A stretch of DNA of 64,000 bases, from NCBI GenBank assembly GCA_964600755.1, contig CAZRKQ010000039.1:421-64420 (forward strand), given 5' to 3'. The notes under the pieces were generated by a model. The model ran no database searches. It worked only from the letters and a program-made list of their open reading frames with translations, and was not told the origin of the DNA. This stretch comes from an uncultured Thiotrichaceae bacterium (lineage in GTDB: Bacteria; Pseudomonadota; Gammaproteobacteria; SZUA-229). Within the stretch, counting starts at the first letter, position 1; every line of letters begins with the position of its first letter. The position numbers and the translations under genes were made by a program. This document shows positions 6,271 through 61,795 of the stretch, one piece after another.

Positions 6271-6397
6271 TTCACCGCAGAGGCGCAGAGGCGCTGAGAA
6301 AGAAATTGGGTTTTGTTTTGCGACTGACACATCATTGCAGTGAGCAAAGAAGAAGTTATAGAAGAAGTTACTGTCTTAACAATATTCCTCTGCGTCT
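6271..6397. repeat. MITE-like repeat, copy 1 (TIR ttcACCGCAGAGGCGCAGAGGCGC ... CCTCTGCGTCTCTGCGGTgaa)
   Basis: Terminal inverted repeats with internal tandem GCAGAGGC GCAGAGGC; left subterminal region ctgagaaagaaattgggttttgttttgcg shared with copies 2 and 6. Confidence 0.6.
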
Positions 6398-6429
6398 CTG
6401 CGGTGAAACATGTGTTTGTCTACGTTTAT

Positions 6430-6876
6430 TCAGTTGTCCTGCAGCACGCGTTCGTCGTATTCCGATTCGAAGAACAGCTTGTGCTTGGCTTCTTCCTTGG
6501 CTAGACCGACGAAGACTTCCTTCAGGTTGCTCTCGGGGATTTTTGCAGCCATGTCGCTGTAAAGTTCGAAGGCGGCGCGTTCTTTTTTCATGGCGACGAT
6601 CAGTGCATCCTGGTAGGAAATATCGTCGCTGGCATCGACTTCAACAAGATAGTCGGAAATTTTCAGGTCCAGTACTTCCTGTTCCGGTGTCAGTTCGCGA
6701 TCGCCGGTTTTTACTGCGAGCAAACGTTCCTTGTGGCGTTTCTCTTCTTCGGCAAATTCAAGCAGCAGTTGTTTCATGCCGGCTTTTTCAGCCCGCCCGG
6801 CAAGGTTTGCATAGAAGTCAGCCGCCTGCTGTTCCTGGTCAATTGCGTAATCAAGTATTTCATCAATGGTATTCAT
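6430..6876 (-). CDS. Rubrerythrin-family diiron protein (ferritin-like, no rubredoxin domain)
   Basis: 148 aa; two ExxH diiron motifs (EFAEEEKRH, LAKEEAKH) in four-helix-bundle spacing. Confidence 0.65.
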   Translation of the reverse strand: MNTIDEILDYAIDQEQQAADFYANLAGRAEKAGMKQLLLEFAEEEKRHKERLLAVKTGDRELTPEQEVLDLKISDYLVEVDASDDISYQDALIVAMKKERAAFELYSDMAAKIPESNLKEVFVGLAKEEAKHKLFFESEYDERVLQDN

Positions 6877-6897
6877 CGGTGTTCATCCCCCTGGTCT

Positions 6898-8709
6898 TTA
6901 TCTACCTGCTTGTGAATCGCTGTTAGTGTATGCGTCCGGGTTGAGGAAACGGTCAATGCCGCGCGCCGCGTGGTGGCCATCTTCGATTGCGCTGATGGCG
7001 TCGGCGATACGGTTGGCAACGTCGCCGCCAACAAAGATTTTTTGCAACGGCGTGTGCTGGTACTCACCCGGAGAAAACTTGCCCCATTCGATTGCAAGCT
7101 GTTCCTGTATCTCTTTGGAAAGAAAGTCGAGATCGCTGCCCTGGCCAATGGCCGAGATGATGCTGTCATAGCTTTGTTCATGCATGCGATCTTCCTGCAG
7201 CACCGGGCGCGGGCGGCCGCCTTTCGGGTCCTGCACCATTTCTGCCTCACCCCACTTGATCGTGACCTGGCTGGAATCCGCTGCGTTGACGATCTCGACC
7301 GGGATTGCCTGCGGTACGATGCTGCAGCCCTCTTCCTGTGACTCGTGGATTTCTTCAGTGTCTGCCGGCATATCGGCGATGCGGCGACGGTAGAGTATAG
7401 TGACATCCGCACCGAGGCGTCGTGAGACACGCGCGGCATCCATGGCGACATTGCCCCCGCCGATCACGGCGACTTTGTGGCCGATACCAGGATCGCGCCC
7501 GCTGGCGACATCGGCGAGTACCTGCAAACCTGACAGCACGCGCGGGTGGTCTTCACCCTGAATGCGCATGCTGGACGGTACCGACAGGCCAGTGGAGAGG
7601 AACACGGCATCGTAGTCCTGCAACAGTATCTCGAAGCTGATGTCTTTGCCAACCTGCGTGTTGTAATTCATGTCGACACCCAGTGAGACAATGTATTCAA
7701 TGTCCTTGTCAAGATCGGCATCCGGCAGGCGATAGCTTGGTACACCGTAGCGCAGCATGCCGCCGGCAGTTTTCTGTGCTTCAAAAACAGTCACAGCATG
7801 GCCTTGCTTGCGCAGGTAATAGGCAGCGCTGAGGCCGCCGGGACCGGCGCCGATGATGGCGACCTTGTGGCCGCTTTCATTAATCTCATCATTAAGTATG
7901 CGCCTGTAGTCATTTGCGTCGACCTGGTCGACGATAAAGCGTTTCAGCCAGCGGATTGCGACTGGCTCACCGAGGATGCCGACCGGGCATACGGATTCAC
8001 ACCTGCGAGTACAGATGCGGCCGCAGGTCGCCGGGAACGGATTGGTACGGTACATCAGCTGCAGGCCTTTTTCGTAGTCACCATCGCGGATGCTGTGGAT
8101 GTAGTCAGGAACATCCATGTGTGCCGGACAGGTGGCAACACAGATGCCGCACTCCACGCAGCGGTCGGCTTCTTTCTTTGCCTGCTCGATGCTGTAGCCT
8201 TTAGCGACTTCATCAAACGACTGTACGCTATCCTCCGGCGACAGCATCTCCATTTCGATGCGTTTGGGCGGGTAAAGGTGATAGTCATCCGCACGGCGGT
8301 AGCCATGCTCATTGTCCTGCCAGGGCTTGTCATCCACGCCCGCGGTGAAATGGAACTCGTCCGGGTCTTCGGTAAACCAGGCGTATTCATTGCTCATGCG
8401 CAACGAGGCTGCAGTACAGATGTCCACGCACAGGCCGCACCAGCAGCAGCGGCCATAATCGAAGCGCGGACGCAGGCCGCTGTCACCCGGGCGGCCTTCA
8501 AATTCTTCCACCGCTACCATATCGATGGCGTGGTTCTGGCAGATCGTGTGGCAACTGCCACAACCGATGCATTTTTCTGTAACGTTAATATGAAATCCGC
8601 GATAAGCCGGCGCGCCGGGCCGGTCGATGGTCGGGCGCATCGAGGTGTAGGGTTTCTCGAAGGCGCGCTGCCAGACAAAGAAGGGCGATAACAGGTCTCT
8701 TAAATTCAT
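6898..8709 (-). CDS. Fusion protein: NuoI/MbxN-like 2x[4Fe-4S] ferredoxin domain + additional 2x[4Fe-4S] + GltD/SudA-like FAD/NAD(P)H-binding oxidoreductase
   Basis: 603 aa; N-terminus CIGCGSCHTICQNHAI...CCWCGLCVDICTAASL (NuoI-type CxxCxxCxxxC pairs); second pair CVECGICVATCPAH / CGRICTRRCESVCPVG; then VAIIGAGPGGLSAAYYL and KVAVIGGGNVAMDAA dinucleotide-binding motifs typical of glutamate synthase small-subunit family. Confidence 0.7.
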   Translation of the reverse strand: MNLRDLLSPFFVWQRAFEKPYTSMRPTIDRPGAPAYRGFHINVTEKCIGCGSCHTICQNHAIDMVAVEEFEGRPGDSGLRPRFDYGRCCWCGLCVDICTAASLRMSNEYAWFTEDPDEFHFTAGVDDKPWQDNEHGYRRADDYHLYPPKRIEMEMLSPEDSVQSFDEVAKGYSIEQAKKEADRCVECGICVATCPAHMDVPDYIHSIRDGDYEKGLQLMYRTNPFPATCGRICTRRCESVCPVGILGEPVAIRWLKRFIVDQVDANDYRRILNDEINESGHKVAIIGAGPGGLSAAYYLRKQGHAVTVFEAQKTAGGMLRYGVPSYRLPDADLDKDIEYIVSLGVDMNYNTQVGKDISFEILLQDYDAVFLSTGLSVPSSMRIQGEDHPRVLSGLQVLADVASGRDPGIGHKVAVIGGGNVAMDAARVSRRLGADVTILYRRRIADMPADTEEIHESQEEGCSIVPQAIPVEIVNAADSSQVTIKWGEAEMVQDPKGGRPRPVLQEDRMHEQSYDSIISAIGQGSDLDFLSKEIQEQLAIEWGKFSPGEYQHTPLQKIFVGGDVANRIADAISAIEDGHHAARGIDRFLNPDAYTNSDSQAGR

Positions 8710-8747
8710 TGCATGACTCGTCTGAATACTGTGTTTGAAAAAACTAT

Positions 8748-8881
8748 TTCACCGCAGAGGCGCAGAGGCACTGAGAAAGATGTTGGTTTTTGTATTGCGG
8801 CCGACAGAACAGAGCAGCAAACAGATGTGAAATTACAATCGTATATAGCATTTCTCTGCGTCTCTGCGCCTCTGCGGTTAA
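8748..8881. repeat. MITE-like repeat, copy 2 (sits in the gap between NuoD-like gene and NuoI-GltD fusion gene)
   Basis: ttcACCGCAGAGGCGCAGAGGCAC ... CTCTGCGTCTCTGCGCCTCTGCGGTtaa; subterminal ctgagaaagatgttggtttttgtattgcgg homologous to copy 1. Confidence 0.6.
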
Positions 8882-8893
8882 TCATTTCATTCA

Positions 8894-10063
8894 TTAGCGT
8901 TCGATCTCCGGTGGATAGGTATGCAGCGATACCATCAGGCCGGCGATATCGGCGATGTTGGTGCCGCGCGCCAGGCGTTCCATCACGGCGATGGCGTGGG
9001 TGTAGCTGGGGCCGCGCACGTGTACGCGTCGTACATACTCGGTACCATCAGACACCATGTAGTAAGCGTACTCACCGCGGGTACACTCCGCCTTGACGTA
9101 GGTTTCGCCGGTCGGGATTTTCCAGTGCAGCACGTTGGGCATGTCTGCCTGGAACGGGCCGTCAGTCGGGGTATGGTCGAGGCACTGGCGGATCAGGCTG
9201 ATGCTCTGGCGGGTCTCCTGCAATCGACAGTAGGCGCGGCCGTAGGCATCGGACTCGTTGCCGCTGACAATATCGAAATCGAGCTGGTCATAGGCCAGGT
9301 AGGGCTCGTCCTTGCGCAGGTCGCGGGCGAAGCCGCAGGCGCGTGCATTGGGGCCGACAATGCCGTAGGGGTCGATCATGTCCGGCGTGATGATGCCAAG
9401 GCCTTTTGAGCGTGCCTTGAACACCGCGTTGTTGAACATCACGCGCTCGACCTGGTCGAGCAGCTTTTCGGCACCATCCATAATTTCACGTGCGCGTTGC
9501 TCGAATCCGTCCGGCAGACCGGCACGAACGCCGCCGGGCACGATATACATGTGGTAGATGCGGGCACCGGTCATTTCCTCGAACAGGTCAAGCACGTAGT
9601 CGCGATAGGCCAGGGTCCAGTTGGGCACAGTGTACTGGCCGAAAGCGCTGGCGAGACCACCTATCCACATCAGGAAGCTGGCGAGACGCATCAGCTCCAG
9701 GTTCATGGTGCGCAGCCAGACCGCGCGTTCCGGTACCTCGATGCCGCTGAGTTCCTCGACCGCGGCGGAGTACAGGTACTCGTTGAAAGTCGGTTCGGGT
9801 ACCGCGATGCGGCACACCACGGTGAAGTTCTGGATGTAGGTGCGCCTTTCCATCAGCTTTTCGAAACCACGGTGCAGGTAACCAACATGGGTCTTGCACT
9901 CGATAATAGTGTCACCGTCCAGCACCAGTTCCAGCGACATGTTGCCGGTTATGCCCGGGTGTTGTGGGCCTTGCCACAGCTTGACGTATTTACCCGAAGA
10001 CAGGTCAACCGGTTCGGGTTGCGGGAAATCCAGCGAGGCGGAATGGCCGGTTGACTGCGTCAT
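8894..10063 (-). CDS. NuoD / group-4 [NiFe] hydrogenase large-subunit homolog lacking Ni-binding cysteines (MbxL/Ehr-like)
   Basis: 389 aa; GPQHPG signature near N-terminus; no N-terminal RxCGxC and no C-terminal DPCxxC motifs (C-terminus ...GLMVSLHTYPPEIER); 4-bp overlap with upstream NuoC-like gene. Confidence 0.75.
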   Translation of the reverse strand: MTQSTGHSASLDFPQPEPVDLSSGKYVKLWQGPQHPGITGNMSLELVLDGDTIIECKTHVGYLHRGFEKLMERRTYIQNFTVVCRIAVPEPTFNEYLYSAAVEELSGIEVPERAVWLRTMNLELMRLASFLMWIGGLASAFGQYTVPNWTLAYRDYVLDLFEEMTGARIYHMYIVPGGVRAGLPDGFEQRAREIMDGAEKLLDQVERVMFNNAVFKARSKGLGIITPDMIDPYGIVGPNARACGFARDLRKDEPYLAYDQLDFDIVSGNESDAYGRAYCRLQETRQSISLIRQCLDHTPTDGPFQADMPNVLHWKIPTGETYVKAECTRGEYAYYMVSDGTEYVRRVHVRGPSYTHAIAVMERLARGTNIADIAGLMVSLHTYPPEIER

Positions 10064-12193: not shown

Positions 12194-15100
12194 TATCCGA
12201 GCCCTCCATTCACCAGCACCATGGCAACAAAAAACATCAGGATGAACAACGCGTAGGTCTGGCCGTTACCGTTGTAGAAAATCCGCAGTGATGAAGCCAG
12301 CGTGTGGCTCCATTCGGCAGCGGCGTTCCAGAAGGCAGTGGCGCGTGGTTTTACCAGGAAGCCGATGGCACGATCGTAGTGGGCGAAGAAGTGATAGGCA
12401 TAATGCGTATCTTCCGGACGGTGCGGACGCTCGGCGGCATAAACGATGTTGAACTGTTCGACTTTCTGGATTTTCAGGGTCAGCGATATCAACAGCAATA
12501 AAATCAGCGGCACCATCCAGACGCCGCCGACTATGGCCATGATCATCGGCGCATTCCAGTAACCATACTGTGTCTGCAAGGCAAAGCCTTCCCATACGAG
12601 TGCACCACCGAGCCACGGCGCAACTGCAGCAGACAGTGGATCGAGCAGCAGTTTCGGGTAAGCCGAGATCACCATGATGGCGGCGATCATGACGAACTGC
12701 GGCGCCAGCAGAATGGCCGGTGCTTCGCGCAGCCTGGCGTGTTCGAGTTTGCGCTGACCGAGGAACACGGTCTGCAGCAGGCGGAACATATAAAGGAAAG
12801 CCACGGCGCTGGAAAAGAACGCGAGGGCGGCGATCCAGTACCAGCCTTTCTCCATCAGGGCATTGAACAGCATCCATTTACCGCCGAAGCCGGTTAGCGG
12901 CGGTACACCGGACATGGCAATAATCGCAATCATGGTGAACACGAAAGTAAACGGCATGTTCTTGATCAGGCCACCCATCCTGTACATCATGCGTTCGTTG
13001 GTACGCAGTATGATGCCGGCGATGCTGAGAAAGAGGATGCCTTTGAACAGAAAATGGTTGACGGTCATGTACAGCGCCGACACCCAGCCAAGGTGGCTCA
13101 TCAGTGCGATGCCGGTAACAATATAACCCAGTTGCCCCATGCTGGAGTAGGCGACCAGGCGCTTGATGTCTTCCTGGAACACGGCCATCAATGCACCAAA
13201 GGTAGCGGTAAGGATACCGATCCAGCCGAGCACGTAGGCCGGATCGAGGCCGATGTCTGAACGAATGCCAAGCTGTGCTGCAATTAGTATAAGCCCGAAG
13301 ATACCGGCCTTGCTGACCACGGCAGAGAGTATCGCGGTAAAGTCATCGTCGGCTTCGGCGTAAGCGGCGGGCAGCCAGACGTGCACGCCAAAGCCACCCA
13401 TCTTGATGACAAAGCCGGCCGCGAGCAGGCTGAAGACGAGGCCGATGGAATCACCGCTGTTGCCGAGGTCCGACAGCAGCAGGCTACCGCTTGCAGCATA
13501 GGCGACCGCAAAACCGGCGAGGATGAAGTACGCCGAAGCGAGTGAGAACAGCAGGTAATTGAGCGCAGGTTTAACGCCCTCACGTCCCAGCGTAACCAGC
13601 AGGTAGGAACTCAGTGTCATCAGTTCCCAGCTGAAGAAAAACTCAAGTGACGTCTTCGCGCGTAACAGCGCAGCGAGTGACAGCAGCAGTACCGCGAGCA
13701 AGGGATAAAATCCCTTGCGGTCACCAGTGCGGTACATTGAAGCAATACTTACCAACAGGCCGCCACCAACCAGTAGATAGCTGAACAGCTGGTTTAAACC
13801 CTCGAGATCATTCGTCAACCAGAGGCCGCCCATACCAACAAAGACCAGCATTGGCAGACCCTTGAGGCGTGCGCAAAGACTGTCGATCAGCCACAGCATC
13901 AAGCCAGCAAGCAGCGGCAGGAACATGCCCGGGATATCGATACTCATTGTCATTGCCATGCCAGAGCCGATAGCGAACAACAGCAATACTGCAATAGCGA
14001 CCGGGGCCTGTTGCCAGAAACTGACGGCTGCCTCAGTCTGTGTTTCAGCCGTGCTGCTTTCATCTTGATGGCGTGCATAGCTGAACCAGCGGAACAGGTA
14101 GGCGGCTTCCAGCAGCGAGCCGATCAGTATCACGGCGATCCAGCCGTACTGCCCGCCACCGGCCAGCAGCATGACCAGCTCCCATTTTGCCCAGAAACCC
14201 GGGAACGGCGGCAGGCCGATCAGCGCAGCCATCATGATGCCGAGCAACAACAACAGGCCGGGGCGCCCGGCGATCGCGGACCAGTCTTTTATGTTCGAAC
14301 GATCAACCATGCCTGCAAGCCAGAACAGCCCAGCCTTGGCCAGCAGGTGGTTGATGAATAAACCACCGACGACGAGAGCCAGTTGTGATGAGGCATCCAG
14401 CTGTTGCAGCAGCGCTATTGCCAGCGTGAGCAGGCCCATCTGGCCAATGGATGAATAACCGAGCAGGCGCCTGGCATTGTCCTGCTTCAGGCCGATGATG
14501 TTGGAAAACAGGAAGGTGGCACCACCGACCAGTGCAATACTGGTCAGGTAATCGCTCATTAACGGCAGCAGTTTATAAAGCGCGAAAAACACACCGGCTG
14601 AAACGCCGACGGATATCAGGGAAGCGATGCCAGTGGGCGCCGTTTCGTACACATCCAGGCCCCAGCCGTTGGCGGGGTATGGCTTGAGTTCGATCAGCAG
14701 GCTGGTGAGCACGAACAGGGTTGCGATCAAACCGATGGGCCCGGTGATCAGTTCACGCTGTGCAATGATGTCGTCGATGTTCAGCGTGCCCGTCTGATAG
14801 TAGATGAAGATGGTGCCGAGCAGGTAGAATGCCGTTGCAACCGAAGTTGCAATGATGTACTTGAAACCGGCGGCCAGGACATTACCGGTGCGCTCCATGC
14901 CGATAAGGGCATAGGTTGCGATCGAGGTGATCTCGATGAAGATGAACAGGTTAAACAGGTCGCGGGTCATTATCATGCCGTTGATACCCATCACCATAAT
15001 CAGGTAAAGCAGCAGCGCCGAGGCATGCTGTTTCAGTGAAGGCAGGAAGTGCCATGCTGCCAGCAATGCAACGGTGTTCACTGCCAGCACAAAGCCACCT

Positions 15101-19856: not shown

Positions 19857-19898
19857 TGCGAAGGGCCTGCTGCCAGTAGCTGCCTGGAATTAAGGTTG

Positions 19899-20147
19899 TT
19901 TAACCGCAGAGGCGCGGAGAATTATTATTCTAATTTCAGGAGCGGCTTTAGCCGCGAATACCTTGCTGATAGTCTATCACGGGCACTGAAGATGCCATCA
20001 TTCTTTTAATATTTATTACATCGTTCGCGTTTTTCGTGGACACACATTCTTATTAAACTTCTGGCGCAGTAGCCAGAGTGTTCGCGACTCAAGTCGCTTC
20101 TACGTTTACCAGTAACCAACTCTGCGCCTCCGCGCCTCTGCGGTTAA
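19899..20147. repeat. MITE-like repeat, copy 3 (longest, ~249 bp)
   Basis: ttAACCGCAGAGGCGCGGAGA ... TCTGCGCCTCCGCGCCTCTGCGGTTaa flanking a unique core; immediately downstream of gnd. Confidence 0.6.
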
Positions 20148-20257
20148 ACAACAGTATTTATTCGCTCACCTGGTGCCAAGGTGATAGTAAATGTTGATCT
20201 TGTAGCATTGGCCGTGCTTCAATACACGCTCTTCAGCTTTTCTCAAGGCAATGCTAT

Positions 20258-22101: not shown

Positions 22102-24102
22102 TTAGTTTAAGTCCATGGTGGATTCCGGTTTTGTCCCTGCTTCGAATAATGTCATCGACCTGGGTTGGCATACGCGAGAGCAATACTGGTTGAGTTCATC
22201 ATAAAGCTGTTCTGCTTTATTCAGGTAGCGGCGTGAAAAATGGAATGGAACCAGGCGAGAAACTCCAGCTTGTGTGGCAATCTCACCACAGGCGCGCGTC
22301 GTTAAATGACCATTCTGTGTTGCATGGTCTACATCAGCTTCAACAAATGCGCTCTCGCAAAATAATGTATGCGCATGTTGTGCAAAGTGGATTAACTGCT
22401 GACGATTGTCTTGCGTGTCTGCAAGATCGGTGGCATACACCAGTTTTTTTCCGGGTGTTATCAGCACCAGTTCATCAGCCAGGGTGCCGGCGTATTCATA
22501 ACTTTCGTCAGGCAGCTGAATCGCTGCTGACAGATTGTTACTGAGCAACGCCTGTTTTAACTCGTTCAGCCAGGGTCCCGGATCAAGTCCGCGTGCCTTG
22601 AGTCGATCTTTGCGAATGTTAATCTGTTGGTCGGCTTTAAGTGCATAAGCAATTACCGGCGTACCCTGATGATCAAGTGTCAGGCCACGTATGCGAAAAC
22701 CTGTCTCAACAAGCAGTTCACCATTCACCGCTGTTTTTTCATTGAATAACTGCGCTTTAACATTGCCGGCCAGTAAACGAAAACATTTCAAGCGGTCGTT
22801 GTGTAGCTCCATCACCTCAAAGGCCGGAGCATTATTTTCTATACGATCCCACAGAATGCCTTGCAGAAAACCTGCAATATGTCGGGCCAGGCCTGGCGGG
22901 CCATAGAGCCGACACACCGGATAATCGCCTATGCGCGAACGTAATAACCAGAGAAAGCCGCTGATGTGATCCATATGTGCATGACTGATAAATACATCAG
23001 TTACCTGGTGCGCAATGCGTGCTGGCAGACGCCCACCATCACCCAGGTCAAACAACAAACTGCGTCGTTGATGGCGCATGCGCAGATGTAACAATGGATC
23101 ACCAAACACGCCATTAACCAACGCCACATCAACAGCGCCGACACGGCCGACGATGCGTGGGCCATTATTGACATCAATTGATGGCAGCACGTCGTTTGGC
23201 GGCAGATAGTCAAAGCGCTCGGCGGCATAAGGTTTTGCGGTTTCAATATAGCCATCTTGACTCCGTGCAGCATCACGTATCAACAGTGTGTCTGCGTCAC
23301 CTGCTACGCCTGAAAGCGTAACTGTCAACAAATCAGACTCAACATGCTCTACCTCGCCCATGGCTAAGGTACGATTCGTTTGCAACAAGGCTACCTGTTT
23401 ACCTGGCCAGGCGCTGGTTTCAGCTGGCAATGGCGGTGTACCGGTTACATTCAGCCTGGCAAGATCAAGTGTTTGCTCTGTCGCATTGGCCAGATAAGCA
23501 TCCCACTGCGCGGTGCGCTGCCGGGCCCGTACTCGTTTACCAGGCCGTTTCGCCTCGGTGGCTGCATTAACCACGAATACCTCTAGCGGCAATGCACATA
23601 ATTCCTCCAGCAGTGGCGGCGGCCGCCCAGGTGCAGTTAATGCCAGAATTACATCCACAGCTGTCGCTTCAACCAGTCCTTGAAGAAGCTCGCGTCCGGT
23701 GACACCGCGGACCACACCGGGTGCATCGATCAACGCCATACCGGCTGGCAACTGCTGTGCCAGTATTCTGGCTGCAGATACCAGGGGTAAACGAAAGCGT
23801 CCTGCATCTAATGTGCATAACGCTGCAATGTCGGCGACCTGCCAGTGATCATCTCGCCACACTGCTGTCGATACTGAACCAGGCACACCAAACGCCGGCG
23901 AACCGGGATCGGCGTTCAGACAACAACATGGGCGTTGCAAATCAAAAAGAACTTTCGCTAACTGCGCAGCTAATGTCGATTTACCAACACCCATTGGGCC
24001 GAACAGTAATACACGCCGGTCATGTTTCATCACCGTGTTGACAATATCTGCAGCATCCAGTGCCAGTACTGGCAAATCATCAACGGTCTTGCTGGTATTC
24101 AT
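22102..24102 (-). CDS. Fusion: Clp1/Grc3-like P-loop polynucleotide kinase domain + metallo-beta-lactamase-fold hydrolase domain
   Basis: 666 aa; N-terminus LLFGPMGVGKSTLAAQLAKVLFDLQRPCCCLNADPGSPAFGVPGSVS resembles Clp1 Walker A followed by LD.GQ...PG element, then IDAPGVVRG...VDVILAL; C-terminal half has MBL HxHxDH motif (ISHAHMDHISGF) and downstream His/Asp ligands. Confidence 0.55.
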   Translation of the reverse strand: MNTSKTVDDLPVLALDAADIVNTVMKHDRRVLLFGPMGVGKSTLAAQLAKVLFDLQRPCCCLNADPGSPAFGVPGSVSTAVWRDDHWQVADIAALCTLDAGRFRLPLVSAARILAQQLPAGMALIDAPGVVRGVTGRELLQGLVEATAVDVILALTAPGRPPPLLEELCALPLEVFVVNAATEAKRPGKRVRARQRTAQWDAYLANATEQTLDLARLNVTGTPPLPAETSAWPGKQVALLQTNRTLAMGEVEHVESDLLTVTLSGVAGDADTLLIRDAARSQDGYIETAKPYAAERFDYLPPNDVLPSIDVNNGPRIVGRVGAVDVALVNGVFGDPLLHLRMRHQRRSLLFDLGDGGRLPARIAHQVTDVFISHAHMDHISGFLWLLRSRIGDYPVCRLYGPPGLARHIAGFLQGILWDRIENNAPAFEVMELHNDRLKCFRLLAGNVKAQLFNEKTAVNGELLVETGFRIRGLTLDHQGTPVIAYALKADQQINIRKDRLKARGLDPGPWLNELKQALLSNNLSAAIQLPDESYEYAGTLADELVLITPGKKLVYATDLADTQDNRQQLIHFAQHAHTLFCESAFVEADVDHATQNGHLTTRACGEIATQAGVSRLVPFHFSRRYLNKAEQLYDELNQYCSRVCQPRSMTLFEAGTKPESTMDLN

Positions 24103-24292
24103 GCTATTCCGTCTTAAACGTATCGTTTAATTATCAGTTAATTGTACTTACATATTAAGCATACCGAATAAAAGGGGAGGAGGGTTTAAATAATGTCTAA
24201 TTTCACATAATGCTTGAATATTAATCCATCCGTTCACTTTATTATCCTGTTCTATATGAATAAACTGACGGAATAACACAAGGAGAATACAC

Positions 24293-24646
24293 ATGGAAGT
24301 TAAAGCCACGATCAAGCCGGGCCAGAATGGTACCAAGCGTTACACCAGGCAGTATGGAGACCAGCTCGTATGCGTCCGATACCGCTATGACAAACGCAGA
24401 CAGAAACGCCTGACAACCGTCGAACTCATCGTCTATGAGCAGGACTGGATCCAGGGAATAACCATACCACCCGATAAAATCGTACCCATAAGAATTGCCT
24501 ACGGCGAGACAGAATTAAGGGAAAAAGTAAAAGTAGCGGGTGCGTATTGGGACAGCAAGAAAAAATTCTGGAAGTTGAGCTTCAGGCTGGTGTATGCGCT
24601 TGGGTTGGAAAAGAGAATAATCGATGAATTTGATCATTTGGAATAA
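24293..24646 (+). CDS. Hypothetical small basic protein (possible cassette ORF)
   Basis: 117 aa; no motif recognised; AT-rich flanks; followed by AAAGTTAGCC motif at 24751. Confidence 0.4.
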   Translation: MEVKATIKPGQNGTKRYTRQYGDQLVCVRYRYDKRRQKRLTTVELIVYEQDWIQGITIPPDKIVPIRIAYGETELREKVKVAGAYWDSKKKFWKLSFRLVYALGLEKRIIDEFDHLE

Positions 24647-24818
24647 TACTAAAATAACTAATTTACATATAAAGATATTTAGTTACCATATTTAGAAATT
24701 GGATATATAGATGAATAAATTATTACTACTTTTAGAAACGTCCCATACTTAAAGTTAGCCGCTAAGCGTATTTCCTAATTGATGCCAAAAGGCACACATC
24801 TATGCTATCCTTTCCCAC

Positions 24819-25097
24819 ATGAAGCCCATTAATTGGAGTCCTGAAAAGAATCAACAACTTATAGAAGAGCGTGGCATTTCCTTTGAAGATGTTGTTTTCT
24901 ATTTACAGCAAGACGCACTATTAGATGATATTGAACATCCGAATGGAGATAAATATCCAAATCAGCGAATCTTTGTTATCAGCATTGATGATTACGTGCA
25001 CCTTGTTCCATATATTGAAGATCGAAAGGAAATATTTCTAAAGACAATCATACCTAGTAGAAAAGCTACAAAGCAGTATCTTGGAGAAGAGTCATGA
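24819..25097 (+). CDS. brnT: BrnT-family (DUF497) ribonuclease toxin
   Basis: 92 aa; INWSPEKNQQLIEERGISFEDV and C-terminal IIPSRKATKQYL match BrnT W(D/S)xxKNxxNxxxHGVSFEE ... IISARRATxxER pattern; 4-bp overlap with downstream antitoxin. Confidence 0.7.
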   Translation: MKPINWSPEKNQQLIEERGISFEDVVFYLQQDALLDDIEHPNGDKYPNQRIFVISIDDYVHLVPYIEDRKEIFLKTIIPSRKATKQYLGEES

Positions 25098-25428: not shown

Positions 25429-25478
25429 TTTTTATAAGAGTGTATTAAATTTTTTTAAGCAATAATGAGGGAAAAACG

Positions 25479-26099: not shown

Positions 26100-26126
26100 T
26101 CTACAATTATTTATGCGCGAGTCTAA

Positions 26127-26320: not shown

Positions 26321-26336
26321 CAGAATGGCAAGTGAC

Positions 26337-44938: not shown

Positions 44939-45694
44939 TTGATAAGGAAACACATGAACAAAAACCATTTCAATTTAGTTCTGCTGGCAGCACTGGTGTC
45001 AGTGATCTTGCTGAGCTCTGCCTGGGAATTCTTTTTAGAAGATCTTTTTGGCCACGTTGTGGACCATGAACATGAGCCGGAAGATCTGCCGCGAAGGCTT
45101 GAATTTGTATTTTCAATTACTGTTTTCGTCGCACTTTCTCTGATCTTTCCAGCCATGGTGGGATACAAGCTGATTGATAACCAGAACATGTTGACTCAAA
45201 AGATCAAGTTGCTTTCAGAGGAAGACTATCTGACCAAACTAAGCAACAGAAGAAAAATACATGAAGTTATCGAAAATGAGATCTCCAGATCGAAACGCTA
45301 TAACAGTACTTTTGCGATCATCTTGCTGGATGTAGATAATTTCAAAACGACAAATGACAATTTTGGCCACAATGTTGGCGATCAAGTGCTCGTTGAACTC
45401 TCGGATATCATAAGGAGGACAATACGTGAATCCGATATCGCCAGTCGCTGGGGCGGCGAGGAATTTCTTGTCTTCTGTCCCCATACGAACGTTGATGGTG
45501 CCTTTGCATTAGCCGAGAAATTACGTACCAACATAGAAAGTAATGAATTTGATGATGTTGGTTATAAAACAGCCAGCTTTGGCGTTACCGACATAGAGCA
45601 CGGGGACACAGTAGAGAGATTAGTACACAGGGCGGATGAGGCCTTATATTCAGCAAAACATTCAGGCAAGAATATGGTGGTGGCAACAAAATAA
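44939..45694 (+). CDS. Membrane-anchored GGDEF diguanylate cyclase
   Basis: 251 aa; two N-terminal TM helices; GGDEF domain with intact GGEEF (RWGGEEFLVF) and RxxD-like I-site region. Confidence 0.8.
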   Translation: MIRKHMNKNHFNLVLLAALVSVILLSSAWEFFLEDLFGHVVDHEHEPEDLPRRLEFVFSITVFVALSLIFPAMVGYKLIDNQNMLTQKIKLLSEEDYLTKLSNRRKIHEVIENEISRSKRYNSTFAIILLDVDNFKTTNDNFGHNVGDQVLVELSDIIRRTIRESDIASRWGGEEFLVFCPHTNVDGAFALAEKLRTNIESNEFDDVGYKTASFGVTDIEHGDTVERLVHRADEALYSAKHSGKNMVVATK

Positions 45695-46410: not shown

Positions 46411-46651
46411 GTCCACAGATGAACGCAGATAAACACAGATATTTTTATGCTACCACTCCTGTAAACACAGGAGTCCAGAGTCTTTATTAAACTACAAAAA
46501 GAAAAATGGTCCGCGAAAAACGCTAACAACGCAAACAACGCAAACAACACAAAAACATAACTAAAGATTTTAACGCCTTTCGCGTCCTTTGCGTTTTTCG
46601 CAGACAAATTACATGTTTAATATCTGTGTTTATCTGCGTTCATCTGTGGAT
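46411..46651. repeat. ~240-bp palindromic element with 31/32-bp terminal inverted repeats and nested inner inverted repeats
   Basis: gtccacagatgaacgcagataaacacagatat (46411-46442) vs atatctgtgtttatctgcgttcatctgtggat (46620-46651); inner pair ccgcgaaaaacgc / gcgtttttcgcag and aacgcaaa / tttgcgtt; CAAACAACG microrepeats in centre. Confidence 0.6.
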
Positions 46652-48292: not shown

Positions 48293-51061
48293 ATGAGCAG
48301 TTCCCGGGTTACGGACAATAAAGACGTTGATCATGGCGCTGCGGCTGGTTTACTTCCTTCGGCACCACACGCGGTTCATGACGATGTCATCGTCAGGCAG
48401 TTGAATACCTCAACTCAGGGTATTACCACAGAAGAAGCAGAATCCAGGCTCGAGCTGTACGGTCCAAACAGCCTGCCTCGGTCAAAACCGCCAGCACTGG
48501 CAATGATATTTCTTTGTCAATTTGTAAGTCCGCTGATTTATGTCCTGGTCGCTGCGGCGATTTTTTCACTGGTAATACAGGAATGGTCGGATGCGGCCTT
48601 TATTACCGGCGTGTTGCTGATTAATGCCATCATCGGAACAATACAGGAATCTTCCGCCCAGCGAGCAGCCACTGCCTTGCAGCAACTCGTTACTACGCAG
48701 AGCCGGGTATTACGTGACGGTGATACATACGAAATCAATTCTGAGGACCTGGTGCCGGGCGACATTTTGTTACTGGAGTCAGGTGAAAAGATACCGGCAG
48801 ATGTACGCCTGCTATCCAGTCATGATCTTGAGGTTGACGAGTCATTGCTGACGGGTGAATCGGCTGCAGTGCTTAAAAAAGCGGGTGATGTGCTGCAGAT
48901 TGATACTTTCGTCGGCGATCGTCGCAATATGGTGTTTGCCGGAACCATGGTCAACCGCGGCAGGGGGAATGGTGTTGTGGTGGCTACTGCACTGTCAACT
49001 GAGCTCGGTAATATTGCTACCGAGGTTATCTCCGGTGAATCAGCGAAACCGCCATTGCTGGTTCGCATGGAAAGATTTACTCACAGAATAGCCATAATCG
49101 TAGGTCTCGCTGCATTATTAATGGCCGCCGTGTCTATTACCCGGGGCATGCCGTTTGCTGAAATATTCATGCTGGCGGTCGCGCTGGCTGTTTCTGTTAT
49201 ACCCGAAGGTTTGCCGGTCGCCCTCACGGTTGCACTTGCCATAGGTATGCGGCGAATGGCAAAACGAAACGTCATTATTCGCCGCCTGATTGCGGTTGAG
49301 TCTCTAGGCTCGTGTACCTACATAGCAACTGACAAGACCGGCACACTGACTGTAAACGAGCTGACAGCCAGGCGCATCCGCTTTCCAAATGGGGATAACT
49401 GGGAGATTACAGGTGAAGGTATGGTGCCAGTTGGAGATATTTTACCGCCGCATGAGTCGCACTCAGATGAAGAGAGGGTGCTACTGGAACGTTTGTGTCT
49501 TACATCAATACTGACTAATGACGGCTTTTTGGGGATGCATGATCATCAATGGAGACATTATGGTGATGCCGTAGATGTGTCCTTGCTGGTGATGGCGCAC
49601 AAGGCCGGTATCGTAAAAGCCAGGACGATCAATGATTTTCCCGAAGTGAGCACGATACCCTTTGAATCAGAGCGTCTGTTTTCAGCCAGTCTTAACCAGG
49701 TTGGAGACAGGCGCCGCATGTTTGTCAAAGGCGCCTTTGAGAAATTACTGCCGATGTGTGACAGCATGGCGCTGCCAGGTGAGGATGTGTCTATTGATAT
49801 CGCCAGTCTTGAACAGCAGGCAACTGAACTTGCCTGCCAGGGCTATCGCGTACTCGCGCTTGCGAGCAGCGATAAGGAGCCGCCAGCTGGCGAGGTGTTC
49901 GGTGAACAGCACTTACATGGCCTGACCTTGCTAGGCCTGGTTGGCATGATTGATCCCTTGCGCCCGGAAGCTAAAGAGGCGGTAGCAACCTGCCGCAATG
50001 CAGGTATCGAGGTGGCAATGGTTACCGGCGATCATCCGGCGACAGCGTTGGCAATTGCACAGGAACTGGGGCTGGCAAAACATGAAGCGCAAATTGTTAC
50101 GGGACCGCAGCTGCATGCCACAAGAACCGATGAAGAAGTTGATGAACTCACCCGGCGCGCACATGTTTTCGCACGCGTGGAACCCTCACAGAAACTCGAT
50201 ATAGTACGTTCGCTTCAGCGTAACGGACATTTCGTCGCGGTCAGCGGTGATGGTGCCAATGATGCGCCGGCATTAAAGGCAGCACAGGTTGGTGTAGCCA
50301 TGGGCAAAAGCGGCACTGATGTGGCACGCGAAACCGCAGAAATCATTATTACTGATGATAACTTCAATTCCATCGTATCCGGTGTAGAAGAGGGACGTAT
50401 ATCCTATTCAAACGTGCGCAAGGTCATATTTTTGCTGATCTCCACAGGTGCTGCTGAACTGGTGCTGTTCACGCTGGCCCTGTTCACAGGGCTTCCTTTA
50501 CCGTTGCTAGCGGTGCAGTTGCTGTGGCTTAACCTGGTCACCAATGGTATCCAGGATGTTGCTCTCGCATTCGAACCGGGTGAGGGCGATGAGTTACGGC
50601 AGCATCCACGTTCGCCCAAAGAATCGATTTTCAACCGTATGATGATCGAGCGTGTCATCAGCTCTGCGCTGGTGATAGGTATCGTCGCATTTTTCCTTTT
50701 CAGGACATTGCTAGATTGGGGCTATACCGTTGAGGAAGCGCGTAACAGTACTTTGCTACTGATGGTGCTGTTTGAGAATGTGCATGTGTTCAATTGTCGT
50801 TCAGAAACTCTGTCCGTATTCCGGCATAATCCGATGCGTAATCGCATACTCCTGTTTGGCACATTGACTGCGCAATTGATACACATCGGTGCAATGTATA
50901 CACCCTGGATCAGTGGTGTGCTCCGGATCCAGCCGGTGTCAATAGAACACTGGCTTGAACTGCTGGGGCTGGCATTGACTGTGACCATAGTAATGGAAAT
51001 TCACAAACTGTATTTATTGTTGTGCGGAAGAACAAATGCAAGGTATATATGTCCTTCATAG
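48293..51061 (+). CDS. P2-type cation-transporting P-type ATPase (Ca2+/Mg2+-type)
   Basis: 922 aa; DKTGTLT phosphorylation motif, TGD, GDGANDAPALK hinge, 10 TM segments. Confidence 0.85.
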   Translation: MSSSRVTDNKDVDHGAAAGLLPSAPHAVHDDVIVRQLNTSTQGITTEEAESRLELYGPNSLPRSKPPALAMIFLCQFVSPLIYVLVAAAIFSLVIQEWSDAAFITGVLLINAIIGTIQESSAQRAATALQQLVTTQSRVLRDGDTYEINSEDLVPGDILLLESGEKIPADVRLLSSHDLEVDESLLTGESAAVLKKAGDVLQIDTFVGDRRNMVFAGTMVNRGRGNGVVVATALSTELGNIATEVISGESAKPPLLVRMERFTHRIAIIVGLAALLMAAVSITRGMPFAEIFMLAVALAVSVIPEGLPVALTVALAIGMRRMAKRNVIIRRLIAVESLGSCTYIATDKTGTLTVNELTARRIRFPNGDNWEITGEGMVPVGDILPPHESHSDEERVLLERLCLTSILTNDGFLGMHDHQWRHYGDAVDVSLLVMAHKAGIVKARTINDFPEVSTIPFESERLFSASLNQVGDRRRMFVKGAFEKLLPMCDSMALPGEDVSIDIASLEQQATELACQGYRVLALASSDKEPPAGEVFGEQHLHGLTLLGLVGMIDPLRPEAKEAVATCRNAGIEVAMVTGDHPATALAIAQELGLAKHEAQIVTGPQLHATRTDEEVDELTRRAHVFARVEPSQKLDIVRSLQRNGHFVAVSGDGANDAPALKAAQVGVAMGKSGTDVARETAEIIITDDNFNSIVSGVEEGRISYSNVRKVIFLLISTGAAELVLFTLALFTGLPLPLLAVQLLWLNLVTNGIQDVALAFEPGEGDELRQHPRSPKESIFNRMMIERVISSALVIGIVAFFLFRTLLDWGYTVEEARNSTLLLMVLFENVHVFNCRSETLSVFRHNPMRNRILLFGTLTAQLIHIGAMYTPWISGVLRIQPVSIEHWLELLGLALTVTIVMEIHKLYLLLCGRTNARYICPS

Positions 51062-52416: not shown

Positions 52417-52555
52417 TTCAACCGCAGAGGCGCGGAGACGCAGAAGCTATGGCAGGTATTCGTAGGAACGACTTTAGTCGCGAACATTAATAATTCGCGG
52501 TTAAAATCGCTCCTACAACAATTAACAACTCTGCGTCTCCGCGCCTCTGCGGTAA
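52417..52555. repeat. MITE-like repeat, copy 4
   Basis: ttcAACCGCAGAGGCGCGGAGACGCAG ... CTCTGCGTCTCCGCGCCTCTGCGGTaa. Confidence 0.6.
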
Positions 52556-52563
52556 ATCACATG

Positions 52564-57373: not shown

Positions 57374-57558
57374 TTTACCGCAGAGGCGCAGAGGCGCAGA
57401 GAAAATACATGATGTGTTTATAGCCGCTGAAGTTAATTTTCTTATTAAGATAGGAAACACTAATAAACGTCTGTTATGTACTATTTATCTGCTGCTGTAC
57501 GAGTAAAGTCATAATAGTTGGCGCAACAATTTTAATATCTCAGCGCCTCTGCGGTTAA
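57374..57558. repeat. MITE-like repeat, copy 5
   Basis: tttACCGCAGAGGCGCAGAGGCGCAGAG ... CAGCGCCTCTGCGGTtaa (right arm shortened). Confidence 0.55.
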
Positions 57559-59696: not shown

Positions 59697-60093
59697 TACC
59701 AGGCGTAAAGATACATCTATAAAGGAATTTGTTCGAGAGCACCTGGGCTGCGCCTGCCCTGATGAGGTGTTCGAGGATATCACTGTAACTGAGCAATCCG
59801 GTATATTTTCATCTGCAAATACCGTGTATGAAATAGGCGGGCGTTTATTCGTAGCCGTATTTGCTCCTGAAGACTGGCATGACATGGCCAGCCATCTTGG
59901 CAAGCTTGTTAATGCCGGAAAGCAGTATCGCGATCTTCATGGTTATAATCGCTTTCGCCTGGTAATAGCCACTAACGGTCATGATGCAACAAGAGACCTG
60001 CAGTTGGTGTTCGATAGCCTGCCAAACATAGACGAGAAAACACATCTGCATGTAATCACACCGGAGTTATTGCCCTGGCATGCAGACGCATGA
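59689..60093 (+). CDS. Hypothetical protein
   Basis: Internal start MNDTRRK of ORF 59623..60093, 8-bp overlap with yjbQ stop; 134 aa; no motif recognised. Confidence 0.35.
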   Translation: MNDTRRKDTSIKEFVREHLGCACPDEVFEDITVTEQSGIFSSANTVYEIGGRLFVAVFAPEDWHDMASHLGKLVNAGKQYRDLHGYNRFRLVIATNGHDATRDLQLVFDSLPNIDEKTHLHVITPELLPWHADA

Positions 60094-61588
60094 TCTATCG
60101 CGAAGATACAGGGCGGCGGGTGAGGCCGTAAAAGGCTGGGTGTTATACCAGGACTACGAACTGGTATCGTGGTTATTTCTACGCCTGCTGGGCATTATCT
60201 ACCTGATTGCTTTTGCGTCGCTGCTGGTACAGATCCAGGGGCTGGTCGGCGAGCAGGGTATATTGCCCGTGGCGGACCTGCTGGCGTACGCAGCCGCCGA
60301 GACTGGAAGTGAACGCTATTACAGACTACCAACCATCTTCTGGTTAGCTCACAGTAATATCGCGCTTGTTGGTGCAACTGTTTACGGTTGTATTGTCTCA
60401 CTTCAGATTCTTTTCAACTGGTGGCAACGACCTGCATTAATCATCGCGTTTATACTTTATCTTTCGTTATTCAATATCTGTCAGCCTTTTCTGCATTTTC
60501 AGTGGGACGGGTTATTGCTGGAAGCCGGCTTCCTGGCTATTTTTCTCGGGTCGCGCTCGGGTATTATTATATGGCTGTTTCGCTGGCTGCTATTCAAGCT
60601 ACGCTTCATGTCAGGACTGTCCAAGCTGACAAGCGGTGATCCGGCATGGTCGGGATTGACTGCGTTAAATACCTACTTTGAGGTCCAGCCATTGCCCAAC
60701 CCGTTGGCATGGTATGTTCATCAATTACCCGAGTTCGTACTGCGTTCAGCTACTGCGGCGACCCTGGTCATTGAAATTCTGGTGCCCTTTATGATGTTCA
60801 TGCCGCGGCGTTGGCGCTTTGCAGCAGCGTGGATCACGATCTTCTGGCAGGTACTTATTATTCTTACCAGTAATCATAACTGGATAAACTTGCTGACAAT
60901 CGCGCTGTGCCTGTTTTTATTTGATGACAGGGCGCTACGTCATGTTATGCCGGCAAGGCTGCAGCCATCGATTCTGATCGTGCAGGTACGTGACAAGTTG
61001 GTCATTCAATTGCGTACTGCATCTATTGCCATAATGGCTGCAATTATACTTGTTGTCAGTTTTGCGCAGCTCTGGATGCTGTCAACAGGACAGACTACAG
61101 GCGGCAGCGCGGGCAAAATGCTTGAACATATGGACGCGTACCGGGTGGTGAACATGTATCACGTGTTCCCGACGATGACAACAGAGAGAATCGAACTTGA
61201 ACTATCGGGCTCTATTGATGGCAAAGAGTGGAAGACGTACCGTTTCAGGTATAAACCCGGCTACCTTGATGAGCGGCCGCGGCTTGTTATGCCGCACCAG
61301 CCCAGGCTTGACTGGCAGATGTGGTTTGTAACTTTGCATGCCAAACACTTGCCCTGGTTTGAGGAGTTCTTATATGCCCTGCTGGATAATTCACCTGATG
61401 TAATAGCATTGCTGGATAACAACCCATTTCCTGACGAAGCCCCGCGATACATCAATGTAGATGCATATAAATATACCTTCACAACGCCTGAACAAAGGCT
61501 GCAGTCAGGAAACTGGTGGAACCGCGAAGCGCTGGGCCCGTTTTTACCAATGCCTGGCGTTATGCGTACTACGCAAGATGCGTATTAA
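60080..61588 (+). CDS. Lipase maturation factor (LMF)-family membrane protein
   Basis: 502 aa; N-terminal multi-TM region with HFQWDGLLLEAGFLAIFL motif characteristic of LMF1-like proteins. Confidence 0.55.
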   Translation: MQTHDLSRRYRAAGEAVKGWVLYQDYELVSWLFLRLLGIIYLIAFASLLVQIQGLVGEQGILPVADLLAYAAAETGSERYYRLPTIFWLAHSNIALVGATVYGCIVSLQILFNWWQRPALIIAFILYLSLFNICQPFLHFQWDGLLLEAGFLAIFLGSRSGIIIWLFRWLLFKLRFMSGLSKLTSGDPAWSGLTALNTYFEVQPLPNPLAWYVHQLPEFVLRSATAATLVIEILVPFMMFMPRRWRFAAAWITIFWQVLIILTSNHNWINLLTIALCLFLFDDRALRHVMPARLQPSILIVQVRDKLVIQLRTASIAIMAAIILVVSFAQLWMLSTGQTTGGSAGKMLEHMDAYRVVNMYHVFPTMTTERIELELSGSIDGKEWKTYRFRYKPGYLDERPRLVMPHQPRLDWQMWFVTLHAKHLPWFEEFLYALLDNSPDVIALLDNNPFPDEAPRYINVDAYKYTFTTPEQRLQSGNWWNREALGPFLPMPGVMRTTQDAY

Positions 61589-61610
61589 TAGGGATAATAT
61601 TTTAAGTTAA

Positions 61611-61795
61611 TTTACCGCAGAGACGCAGAGGCGCCGAGAAATAAATTTTGTTTTTTATGTAATAAAGCTTTACCCGTAAAGCACCAGATAAATATTACAT
61701 AACTAAGGTATATTAGTTTCCTTCCTTCTTCAGGATTGTAAATACCATTAGCCTTTAAAAATTATTCTATTATTTCTCTGCGTCTCTGCGGTGAA
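61611..61795. repeat. MITE-like repeat, copy 6
   Basis: tttACCGCAGAGACGCAGAGGCGCC ... TCTCTGCGTCTCTGCGGTgaa; subterminal gagaaataaattttgtttttt related to copies 1 and 2. Confidence 0.6.

Follow-up and report, generated by a model that had tools for sequence, protein, structure and literature searches.

What are the six short inverted repeats that lie dispersed over 64,000 nucleotides of DNA from an uncultured Thiotrichaceae bacterium (contig CAZRKQ010000039.1), and how did they come to be there? This whole 64 kb stretch is called the window here, and coordinates refer to it unless a locus is named. An initial annotation had reported the repeats as an undescribed family resembling miniature inverted-repeat transposable elements (MITEs), with terminal inverted repeats (TIRs) at their ends. 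The reading preferred here, with a probability of about 0.5, is that all six loci belong, as miniature copies without a gene, to a family of selfish hairpin cassettes that is very widespread, and that these are mobilised in trans by GxxExxY, a small nuclease-fold protein whose gene lies between the same arms in a longer form of the cassette.

All six dispersed copies are real. Direct reading of the sequence finds each hairpin (130-250 bp) in its place, and the 17-mer ACCGCAGAGGCGCAGAG, with up to three mismatches, matches the window 17 times versus 0.12 expected from dinucleotide-preserving shuffles. Twelve of the matches are arm tips, forming six +/- pairs, and the other five lie inside arms, shifted by one 8-nt word. 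The same repeat families were recovered independently by general repeat finding in the window. The left end of each copy reads TT(N)ACCGCAGAG(G/A)CGC(A/G)GAG and the right end is its reverse complement. The window arms are 20-28 bp long and consist of TTN-ACC followed by two or three tandem CGC(A/G/T)GAG words at a spacing of 8 nt, and they enclose 80-190 bp of unrelated sequence. All six copies have the arms by which the family is defined here, namely TTN-ACC(G/A)C plus at least two tandem C(G/A)CN(R)AG words, inverted and 50-600 bp apart. A subterminal GAGAAA..TTGTTTT block is common to copies 1, 2 and 6, as first reported, and copy 2 is 77% identical to copy 1 over 102 nt. The limits originally given were right as to place, except that copy 1 ends at 6407 (an end at 6397 cuts off its right arm); the others were refined by at most 1 bp, and the refined limits take in the TTN/NAA, which belongs to the inverted repeat. 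Folding, which had been proposed as a check, gives long hairpins with z-scores of -6 to -12.6 for the three copies folded (copies 1, 2 and 4).

The repeat is not confined to the window. A scan of 596 Gb, one genome per species, for the motif ACCGCAGAGRCGCRGAG returned at least 119 stretches, and the motif is also present on IMG/VR contigs. By our own estimate a few hundred single 17-mers are expected by chance in 596 Gb, but pairs are not; the match in Bordetella (L030; L-numbers are loci fetched from genomes, metagenomes and IMG/VR contigs) is coding sequence and is an example of such a chance single match. Plus and minus arms are paired 52-560 bp apart in 53 of the 119 loci listed, and their sequences show the same anatomy. 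The hosts of these stretches are beta-, gamma-, alpha- and deltaproteobacteria, Chloroflexota, Cyanobacteria, Acidobacteriota, Bacteroidota, Planctomycetota, Verrucomicrobiota, Firmicutes (Heliomicrobium), Armatimonadota, Gemmatimonadota and candidate phyla. Arms are also carried by isolates, including Fischerella PCC 7414, Nodularia UHCC 0506, Bacteroides finegoldii, Sphingomonas parapaucimobilis, Gemmatirosa kalamazoonensis, Candidatus Thiodictyon syntrophicum and a Nostoc plasmid, and therefore contamination of metagenome-assembled genomes (MAGs) cannot account for the spread across phyla. On IMG/VR contigs at least 120 stretches contain the 17-mer, with 64 paired elements in 44 loci among the matches listed. 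One viral contig of 57.6 kb, IMGVR_UViG_3300035696_003035, has at least five arm matches. The family, called undescribed at the outset, appears to be so: no account of the arm sequences or of an association between GxxExxY and the arms was found by exact sequence and keywords in a literature of 8 million papers, and curators' family descriptions may mention repeats around GxxExxY genes.

The arms of the family are about 25-30 bp long and consist of TT(N)ACC and then tandem 7-nt words, C(G/A)C(N)(R)AG, of which there are usually three with 1-3 nt in between; 150 of 205 paired elements have three words on each side. The inverted repeat ends exactly three bases outside ACC, with the consensus TT(C/A)ACC ... 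GGT(G/T)AA. Positions -1 to -3 have a complementarity of 0.57-0.67, with background values (0.23-0.45) beyond them, and this is alike in the short form and in the form that bears an open reading frame (ORF). Beside CGCAGAG, sister words CACAGAG, CACGGAG, CGCCGAG, CGCGGAG, CGCAAAG, CGCGAAG and CACGAAG have been found. The kind of word is usually equal on both arms, identical word pairs making up 52% within elements and 28% between elements. The lengths of all paired elements form a bimodal distribution, with modes at 50-250 bp and 400-600 bp. What the loop holds varies: non-coding DNA of 10-200 bp, a REPIN or a further hairpin element, or, in a form of 430-580 bp, one small gene. REPINs are doublets of repetitive extragenic palindromic (REP) sequences that form hairpins and are associated with REP-associated tyrosine transposases (RAYTs) (Bertels and Rainey 2011, PMC3116915). 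Nesting in the loop of another element is common (L001, L017, L020, L067 and window 46412-46650). Outer arms around an inner REPIN-like GTAGGAGCG...CGCTCCTAC hairpin are the design of copies 3 and 4, of the orthologue of copy 4 in L122 and of L027, an element in an unrelated gammaproteobacterial MAG. The short form probably spreads as a unit of arms plus loop, because copies 1, 2 and 6 share sequence, composites recur at separate loci, and two loci in one Chloroflexota MAG (L007 and L113) have a common interior. No target-site duplication (TSD) was found: with offsets of 0-5 and k=2-8, identical flanks in 133 elements do not exceed the shuffled expectation. None is visible at the six window copies.

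Which genes do the arms enclose? The ORFs of the 119 loci were clustered to find recurrent neighbour genes. The large clusters are common families (FtsX, CheA, SDR, epimerase, TPR and kinase). One small cluster lies inside arm pairs and matches Pfam PF13366 (PDDEXK_3) at 1e-40 and the NCBIfam family TIGR04256 'GxxExxY protein' at 1e-40 to 1e-44. In this long form of 430-580 bp the same arms surround one gene, which encodes a PD-(D/E)XK protein of about 120 aa. The element of a Thermomicrobiales genome (L106) reads ctcACCGCAGAGGCGCAGAGGGCGCAGAG, 33 nt, ATG...(124 aa)...TAA, 19 nt and TCTCTGCGCCCTCTGCGTCTCTGCGGTgaa. Arm-bracketed GxxExxY genes are also found in Scytonema (L050), Planctomycetia (L088, with CACAGAG words) and Pseudomonadota (L096), and as pseudogenes in L024 and L110; in the genome sample all six GxxExxY genes, the two pseudogenes included, lie between arms. 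The arms are common to the short and the ORF-bearing forms, those of the window being indistinguishable from the arms around GxxExxY genes (e.g. L106, L050, L096, L130).

The association was also seen from the protein side. Eighty metagenomic GxxExxY loci were picked blind to context, and 73 of them have at least 90 bp of flank. An ungapped inverted repeat surrounds the gene in 47 of the 73 (about two thirds), about the same number have the two-word arm pattern on both sides, and element length is tightly 430-580 bp. Isolates with GxxExxY in arms are Bacteroides finegoldii (protein WP_032839887.1), Sphingomonas parapaucimobilis and Gemmatirosa, and a radA-GxxExxY arrangement is seen in Bacteroides. 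The gene is co-oriented with its neighbours in ratios of 47:15 upstream and 37:10 downstream; such co-orientation is close to the norm for adjacent bacterial genes and is given little weight. To our knowledge no activity has been described for GxxExxY. Its catalytic residues are intact, and the full element encodes no other activity of its own. A sequence search of the Protein Data Bank with GxxExxY gave no match; a fold search succeeded. All 8000 candidates scored in a database search were significant, and the family is listed as of unknown function (PMC3424549). The search for an autonomous partner with the same TIRs, suggested in the initial annotation, did turn something up: a longer form with the same arms exists, but it encodes the GxxExxY protein and no transposase. 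By tblastn the window has no GxxExxY-like sequence and its six loops are too short for the gene; therefore its copies are classed as the ORF-less form.

These results bear on the MITE-like label, under which the copies would be internal-deletion derivatives of an insertion sequence (IS) with a DDE transposase and the same TIRs. Six dispersed ORF-less copies of 130-250 bp with inverted arms of 20-28 bp and variable cores are what such a derivation would give. Some tips read TGAACCGC...GCGGTTCA, i.e. they have a TG...CA end, which we take to be reminiscent of IS3-type ends. However, the 133 elements lack a TSD, no transposase lies within arm pairs at the at least 119 genome and at least 120 viral loci listed (a limited sampling), the searches turned up no IS or DDE transposase that has these ends, and the longer form carries a 120-aa nuclease. 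A classical MITE origin is very unlikely. A DDE fragment in L171 belongs to an unrelated IS inside a loop and is not the element's own transposase. Arm pairs more than 700 bp apart are unrelated neighbouring elements (e.g. around Asn-tRNA synthetase in L193) or involve that IS fragment.

How do the copies behave in related strains? The P-type ATPase encoded at 48293-51061 shares 84% identity with a protein from 'Thiotrichales bacterium' CP070838.1 (2.8 Mb) and has 98-100% matches on metagenome contigs. Syntenic loci are L120, L123, L124, L128 and L129 (97-99.9% DNA identity), L127 (83-98% DNA identity) and the more distant L121 and L122 (84-86% protein identity). Copies 2-5 are present in all close strains, and copy 4 has orthologues in L120 and L122. 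In more distant relatives the same sites are occupied by other members of the family, or the divergence is too great for alignment; at the copy-5 site L122 has a 42-bp spacer and no element, and is too diverged to align. Between L124 and the window, which are 99%-identical strains, the number of words in copy 5 has changed, the left arm of L124 having one 8-nt word fewer and the right arm one more. The flanks of L127 are 88-98% identical, yet different family members occupy its copy-1 and copy-2 sites, one of these being a composite that has CACAGAG arms and contains a REPIN. Copy 5 of L120 has an interior that blastn does not align, between flanks that are 97% identical. The sites are stable and their contents turn over fast, because L124, L127 and L120 differ in the element at conserved flanks. 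Two of the four contigs recovered for the gene upstream of copy 4 end about 150-160 bp beyond the gene, near copy 4.

In the preferred reading the cassettes would be selfish DNA that spreads within and between genomes as arms-plus-loop units. The GxxExxY nuclease from full-length copies would act in trans on the arms, probably on an extruded hairpin or cruciform near the conserved TTN-ACC tip. Movement or copying may follow a cut-and-repair (homing-like) route that leaves no duplication, and the window copies would be non-autonomous passengers of GxxExxY. In transcripts the arms would pair, and the long stem so formed would set the loop apart from the host mRNA. Such a stem in mRNA would explain why cassettes are tolerated just downstream of genes and inside operons; this step is drawn by analogy with 23S rRNA intervening sequences, which RNase III cuts. 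GxxExxY is the leading candidate for the mobiliser.

Several observations weigh against this proposal. No clean empty site was found among the strains compared, so that mobility is inferred and not observed. Neither the window nor some 100 kb from related strains contains a GxxExxY gene, and a pattern-based scan of IMG/VR returned none, though arms are abundant there (no relatives of the 23S_rRNA_IVP protein, mentioned below, were confirmed in IMG/VR either). GxxExxY similarity does not track the word type of the arms (0.585 within types versus 0.575 between; 63 of 1000 permutations reach this). Arm mismatches are balanced relative to the ORF strand (20 of the G.U type versus 25 of the A.C type) and give no sign of selection on an RNA stem of one strand. 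'Inside-out' pairs, in which a right arm is followed 18-65 bp on by the matching left arm, are unexplained. Arms also enclose a Uma2 nuclease gene in Nodularia and ordinary phage ORFs, and a 23S_rRNA_IVP (four-helix-bundle) gene lies between analogous arms of other words. The phage genes, on IMG/VR contigs, are single small genes (phrog_322, 6978, 1009 and 427, function unknown), and the arms of at least one pair share idiosyncratic spacers and are thus true partners. The last 11 codons of the 23S_rRNA_IVP ORF (L116) are encoded by the right arm. With other genes between arms, GxxExxY may therefore be a passenger.

This leads to the main rival, which keeps the same anatomy and is a real though lesser possibility. 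It holds that the arms are an autonomous unit or landing pad, spread by a host-encoded or unseen enzyme, and that GxxExxY is only cargo. Small selfish genes (GxxExxY, Uma2, the protein of 23S rRNA intervening sequences, phage morons) would settle in the loops either as insertion hot spots or for the RNA processing and expression that the stem gives. The diversity of enclosed genes, the arms without GxxExxY on viral contigs, the other elements and REPINs nested in loops and the failure of GxxExxY similarity to co-vary with word type all agree with it. It does not readily explain why about two thirds of context-blind GxxExxY genes lie in arms, why the full element holds nothing else, its sole self-encoded activity being a nuclease with intact catalytic residues, or why no other recurrent neighbour gene emerged.

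The positions of the copies raise a further question, namely whether the host makes use of them. Pfam matches on the neighbours (PGM, rubrerythrin, Fer4/Pyr_redox, Complex1_49kDa, 6PGD, CBS, cytidylate-kinase-like, AAA_33/APH and DUF1614) place all six copies between real genes, in agreement with what had been claimed, and they are intergenic in related strains too. ORFs 6306..6926(+) and 8713..9096(+), which overlap copies, are antisense to real genes and spurious; the second had already been suspected of being a fake protein. Every copy has at least one neighbouring stop codon at 8-79 bp. Together with the very stable stems, the persistence of copies at the same intergenic sites (flanks or neighbour proteins about 86-99% identical) and the co-orientation of GxxExxY cassettes with their neighbours, at a ratio near the usual level, this would suit host-useful RNA or DNA structures kept by selection, such as 3'-end stabilisers, RNase III sites, attenuators or terminators, or small-RNA genes. 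Against such a function, no U-tract follows the stem and the TTN...NAA flanks are the reverse of a bidirectional terminator, the arms have no G.U asymmetry, the loops lack conservation, with replacements from one strain to another, and horizontal spread is indicated by arms that are nearly identical across phyla and on phage contigs. The small-RNA option, raised at the outset, finds no backing in Rfam. An origin as host structures is thus improbable. A host function is compatible with a mobile origin, and the copies may well have a secondary effect on the transcripts of their neighbours.

Other known identities were tried and rejected. No Rfam family matches the window at gathering thresholds, and at E<=1 the region around copies 1-2 has only one match, to a snoRNA, which is due to chance and far below threshold. 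A tRNA/tmRNA search of the window gave nothing relevant. An intrinsic terminator is excluded by the missing U-tract and by the consensus flanks, which on both strands are TT(C/A) ahead of the stem and (G/T)AA behind it. An integron attC site, with RYYYAAC / GTTRRRY cores at its ends, is suggested only by copy 3, which reads GTTTAAC...GTTAAAC; the other five do not, and the copies are dispersed among housekeeping genes. The window copies are not 23S rRNA intervening sequences, as they lie between protein genes and no locus has two different conserved 23S motifs; the 23S rRNA motif matches at the loci are chance matches to two short motifs.

The initial annotation had also suggested elements of the REP or bacterial interspersed mosaic element (BIME) type. 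In this case the copies would be mobilised by a RAYT, an IS200-like tyrosine transposase. The cassettes resemble REPINs in being short, extragenic, hairpin-forming inverted doublets without TSD, present in tens to hundreds per genome. Both would be non-autonomous and served by a small non-DDE nuclease-type protein, and both can build composite repeats. Genuine REPIN-like GTAGGAGCG...CGCTCCTAC hairpins are present in this genome in copies 3 and 4, but these units are a separate family nested in the loops. The arms themselves are tandem 7-nt words, not palindromes, and have no REP unit, an imperfect palindrome of 20-40 nt with a GTAG-type head. They are shared across phyla, whereas REP sequences are lineage-specific and co-evolve within a lineage. 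The candidate protein of the cassettes has a PD-(D/E)XK fold and not an HUH/Y1 fold, and its gene lies inside the hairpin and is not flanked by REPs. No RAYT was found next to arms or in the Pfam-scanned window ORFs, which lie in the 24-36 kb region and around five of the six copies and include no transposase. A RAYT-mobilised identity is hardly to be expected; it and the MITE reading fail tests that define them, as TSD, transposase, REP unit and lineage specificity are all lacking.

REP/REPIN-like hairpins headed GTAGGAGCG or GTGGGAGCG were seen in the loops of CGCAGAG hairpins in the window (19937-19958, 20081-20103 and 52462-52516), in L127 (about 12420-12500, the copy-2 site, which aligns as the reverse complement), in L027 (about 3065-3150) and in L342 (1460-1640). 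In Thiodictyon the nesting of REPIN-like and CGCAGAG hairpins is reversed. The heads have what we take to be the look of Pseudomonas-type REPs. These hairpins suggest the activity of a RAYT system as well in these gammaproteobacteria.

Which known systems are closest? Bacterial MITEs, such as the Correia/NEMIS elements of Neisseria and Nezha of cyanobacteria, share with the cassettes the TIRs, the length of 100-250 bp, the lack of an ORF, the intergenic position, the variable cores and a longer ORF-bearing form with the same ends. Unlike them, the cassettes have no TSD and are found across phyla, and their longer form measures only about 450-580 bp, its product being a nuclease-fold protein of 120 aa and not a transposase. 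Homing endonuclease genes can be free-standing or intron-borne and include PD-(D/E)XK types such as I-Ssp6803I. They are like the cassettes in having a small nuclease gene as sole content, no TSD, frequent pseudogenes and ORF-less derivatives; the cassettes, however, have no intron, intein or defined homing site and are bounded by long inverted arms. The small dispersed repeats (SDR) of Nostoc and relatives, said to have been described by Elhai and colleagues in 2008, are reportedly very small, hairpin-capable, nested repeats with no known enzyme. Their units are reportedly 21-27 nt and confined to cyanobacteria, and the cassettes are set apart from them by description and not by sequence. The 23S rRNA intervening sequences are horizontally transferred, and some encode the 23S_rRNA_IVP (four-helix-bundle) protein (PMC11270868). 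They and the cassettes have in common a stem of inverted ends, an optional loop ORF of about 120 aa, ORF-less and ORF-bearing versions and a sporadic distribution attributed to horizontal transfer, and an IVP gene is found in word-repeat arms (L116). They differ in that no cassette locus examined lies in an rRNA gene and that the main cargo is GxxExxY, not the four-helix-bundle protein.

Known small hairpin repeats (REP, REPIN, MITE) shape bacterial intergenic regions, and each of their families keeps to one lineage and is linked to a transposase. A 17-nt end shared from Proteobacteria to Cyanobacteria, Chloroflexota, Firmicutes, Bacteroidota and phage contigs implies frequent horizontal spread or a broadly available recognising factor. 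There is a fair chance that the cassettes form a class of their own, whose mobilising enzyme is of a new type. A fuller version of this claim is put forward tentatively, with the odds against it: that they are a new class of mobile element across most phyla and phages, with self-homogenising ends of 7-nt words, moved without TSD by the GxxExxY PD-(D/E)XK nuclease of about 120 aa. If true, this would give a mechanistic tie to 23S rRNA intervening sequences and four-helix-bundle proteins. The link to GxxExxY offers a testable function for a very large uncharacterised family (thousands of database clusters) and suggests a reason why GxxExxY genes are multi-copy. If the stem is processed in RNA, cassettes in operons (fabD-GxxExxY-fabG in Sphingomonas) would be selfish genes that insulate themselves from host transcripts, and the cassette of Sphingomonas YK209 is a convenient cultured system for RNA processing and mobility. 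In practice the arms create spurious ORFs (e.g. 8713..9096) and break short-read assemblies (contigs ending near copy 4); once defined, they could be masked or annotated. The features discussed are collected in Table 1.

Table 1. Hairpin elements of the window and arm-bracketed genes or unusual arm pairs at other loci
Feature	Position	Arms or motifs	Neighbours or context
Copy 1, ORF-less hairpin	6271..6407	left 6271-6298 (TTCACCGCAGAGGCGCAGAGGCGCTGAG); right 6387-6407 (CCTCTGCGTCTCTGCGGTGAA)	PGM gene 4549-6183 (-); rubrerythrin gene 6430-6876 (-)
Copy 2, ORF-less hairpin	8748..8881	left 8748-8775; right 8854-8881, three words	Fer4/Pyr_redox gene 6898-8709 (-); Complex1_49kDa gene 8894-10063 (-)
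Copy 3, composite	19900..20147	outer arms 19900-19919, 20120-20147; inverted repeat reaches 19888-20159	6PGD and CBS genes flank
Copy 3 loop, REP-like pair	19937-19958; 20081-20103	CAGGAGCGGCTTTAGCCGCGAA; TTCGCGACTCAAGTCGCTTCTAC	
Copy 4, composite	52418..52556	52418-52444, 52530-52556, 24/24 complementary	convergent genes flank
Copy 4 loop, REPIN-like hairpin	52462-52516	GTAGGAACGACTTTAGTCGCGAA...TTCGCGGTTAAAATCGCTCCTAC	
Copy 5, ORF-less hairpin	57374..57558	left 57374-57401 (three words); right 57539-57558 (two words)	AAA_33/APH gene; DUF1614 gene
Copy 6, ORF-less hairpin	61611..61795	left 61611-61638; right 61776-61795	convergent genes 60080-61588 (+); 61914-63998 (-)
Nested hairpins, other words, not one of the six	46412..46650	outer arms TCCACAGATGAACGCAGATAAACACAGATATT 46412-46443, 46619-46650, 32/32 complementary	
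Inner hairpin of this nest	46504-46610	CGCGAAAAACGC/CGCAAACAACGC words	
GxxExxY gene	L340, NZ_CP155749.1 482837-483265	CGCGAAG-word arms	Sphingomonas parapaucimobilis YK209; between fabD and fabG, same orientation
Uma2/DUF820 nuclease gene	L115 3594-4468	GAACCGCCAAG... on one side, ...CTCTGCGCCTCTGCGGTTC on the other; two word types	Nodularia sp. UHCC 0506
Arm-bracketed phage genes	L219 9468-9881; L249; L271; L260 2120-2494; L221 5563-6188; L308 4336-5296		IMG/VR
23S_rRNA_IVP gene (PF05635, E 3.5e-24)	L116 1-480	tandem GGGTTAC / GGGTTCC words	Draconibacterium MAG
Inside-out pairs	L073 1030-1170; L076 4625-4700; L342 1502-1570 (Thiodictyon plasmid)		no outer partners nearby

Arms are also found in other arrangements. 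In an inside-out pair of Fischerella the right arm follows the stop of one gene and the left arm precedes the ATG of the next. Single left arms lie directly upstream of start codons in two Nostoc MAGs (L039 at 4951 and L060 at about 2300), where the genes, judged by eye, are xseB-like and of the APH/AAA type and the purine-rich last arm word is at the position expected of a ribosome-binding site. In a bulk test single arms were not enriched upstream of long ORFs over random positions. The isolate Segetibacter sp. 3557_3 (L117 4786-6700) has five same-strand repeats starting GGTGAACAGCCTTTTACCGCAGAGACGCAGAGGAATACACGCAGAGG, 110-740 bp apart, a direct-repeat array in which arm sequence has no inverted partner.

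The nest at 46412..46650 has the architecture of the six copies with a different tip and different words. A similar hairpin with CGCGAA/CGCAAA words lies at the copy-4 site of the Thiotrichales genome (L121, about 14040-14130). A doublet of yet another family that looks to be of REPIN type is present at window 1073-1154, where inverted 25-nt units GTCATTCCCGCGGAAGCGGGAATCT lie 32 nt apart, each unit being a small palindrome, ATTCCCGC-GGAA-GCGGGAAT. The exact 17-mer GAAACGCTATAACAGTA occurs twice (38179-38195 and 45292-45308), with a third copy at 51294 that is 82% identical. Window 24000-32000 has a G+C content of 38-40% versus about 50% elsewhere and contains small ORFs, among them those of a CopG-antitoxin-like protein and of DUF7919; a Pfam scan found no transposase there, and the stretch may be an acquired island. 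A gene for a 1311-aa AsmA-family protein (32225-36160) contains four 33-bp tandem repeats (35899-36060), and at 33147-34124 of the same gene a 300-nt segment recurs 678 nt downstream with 88% identity.

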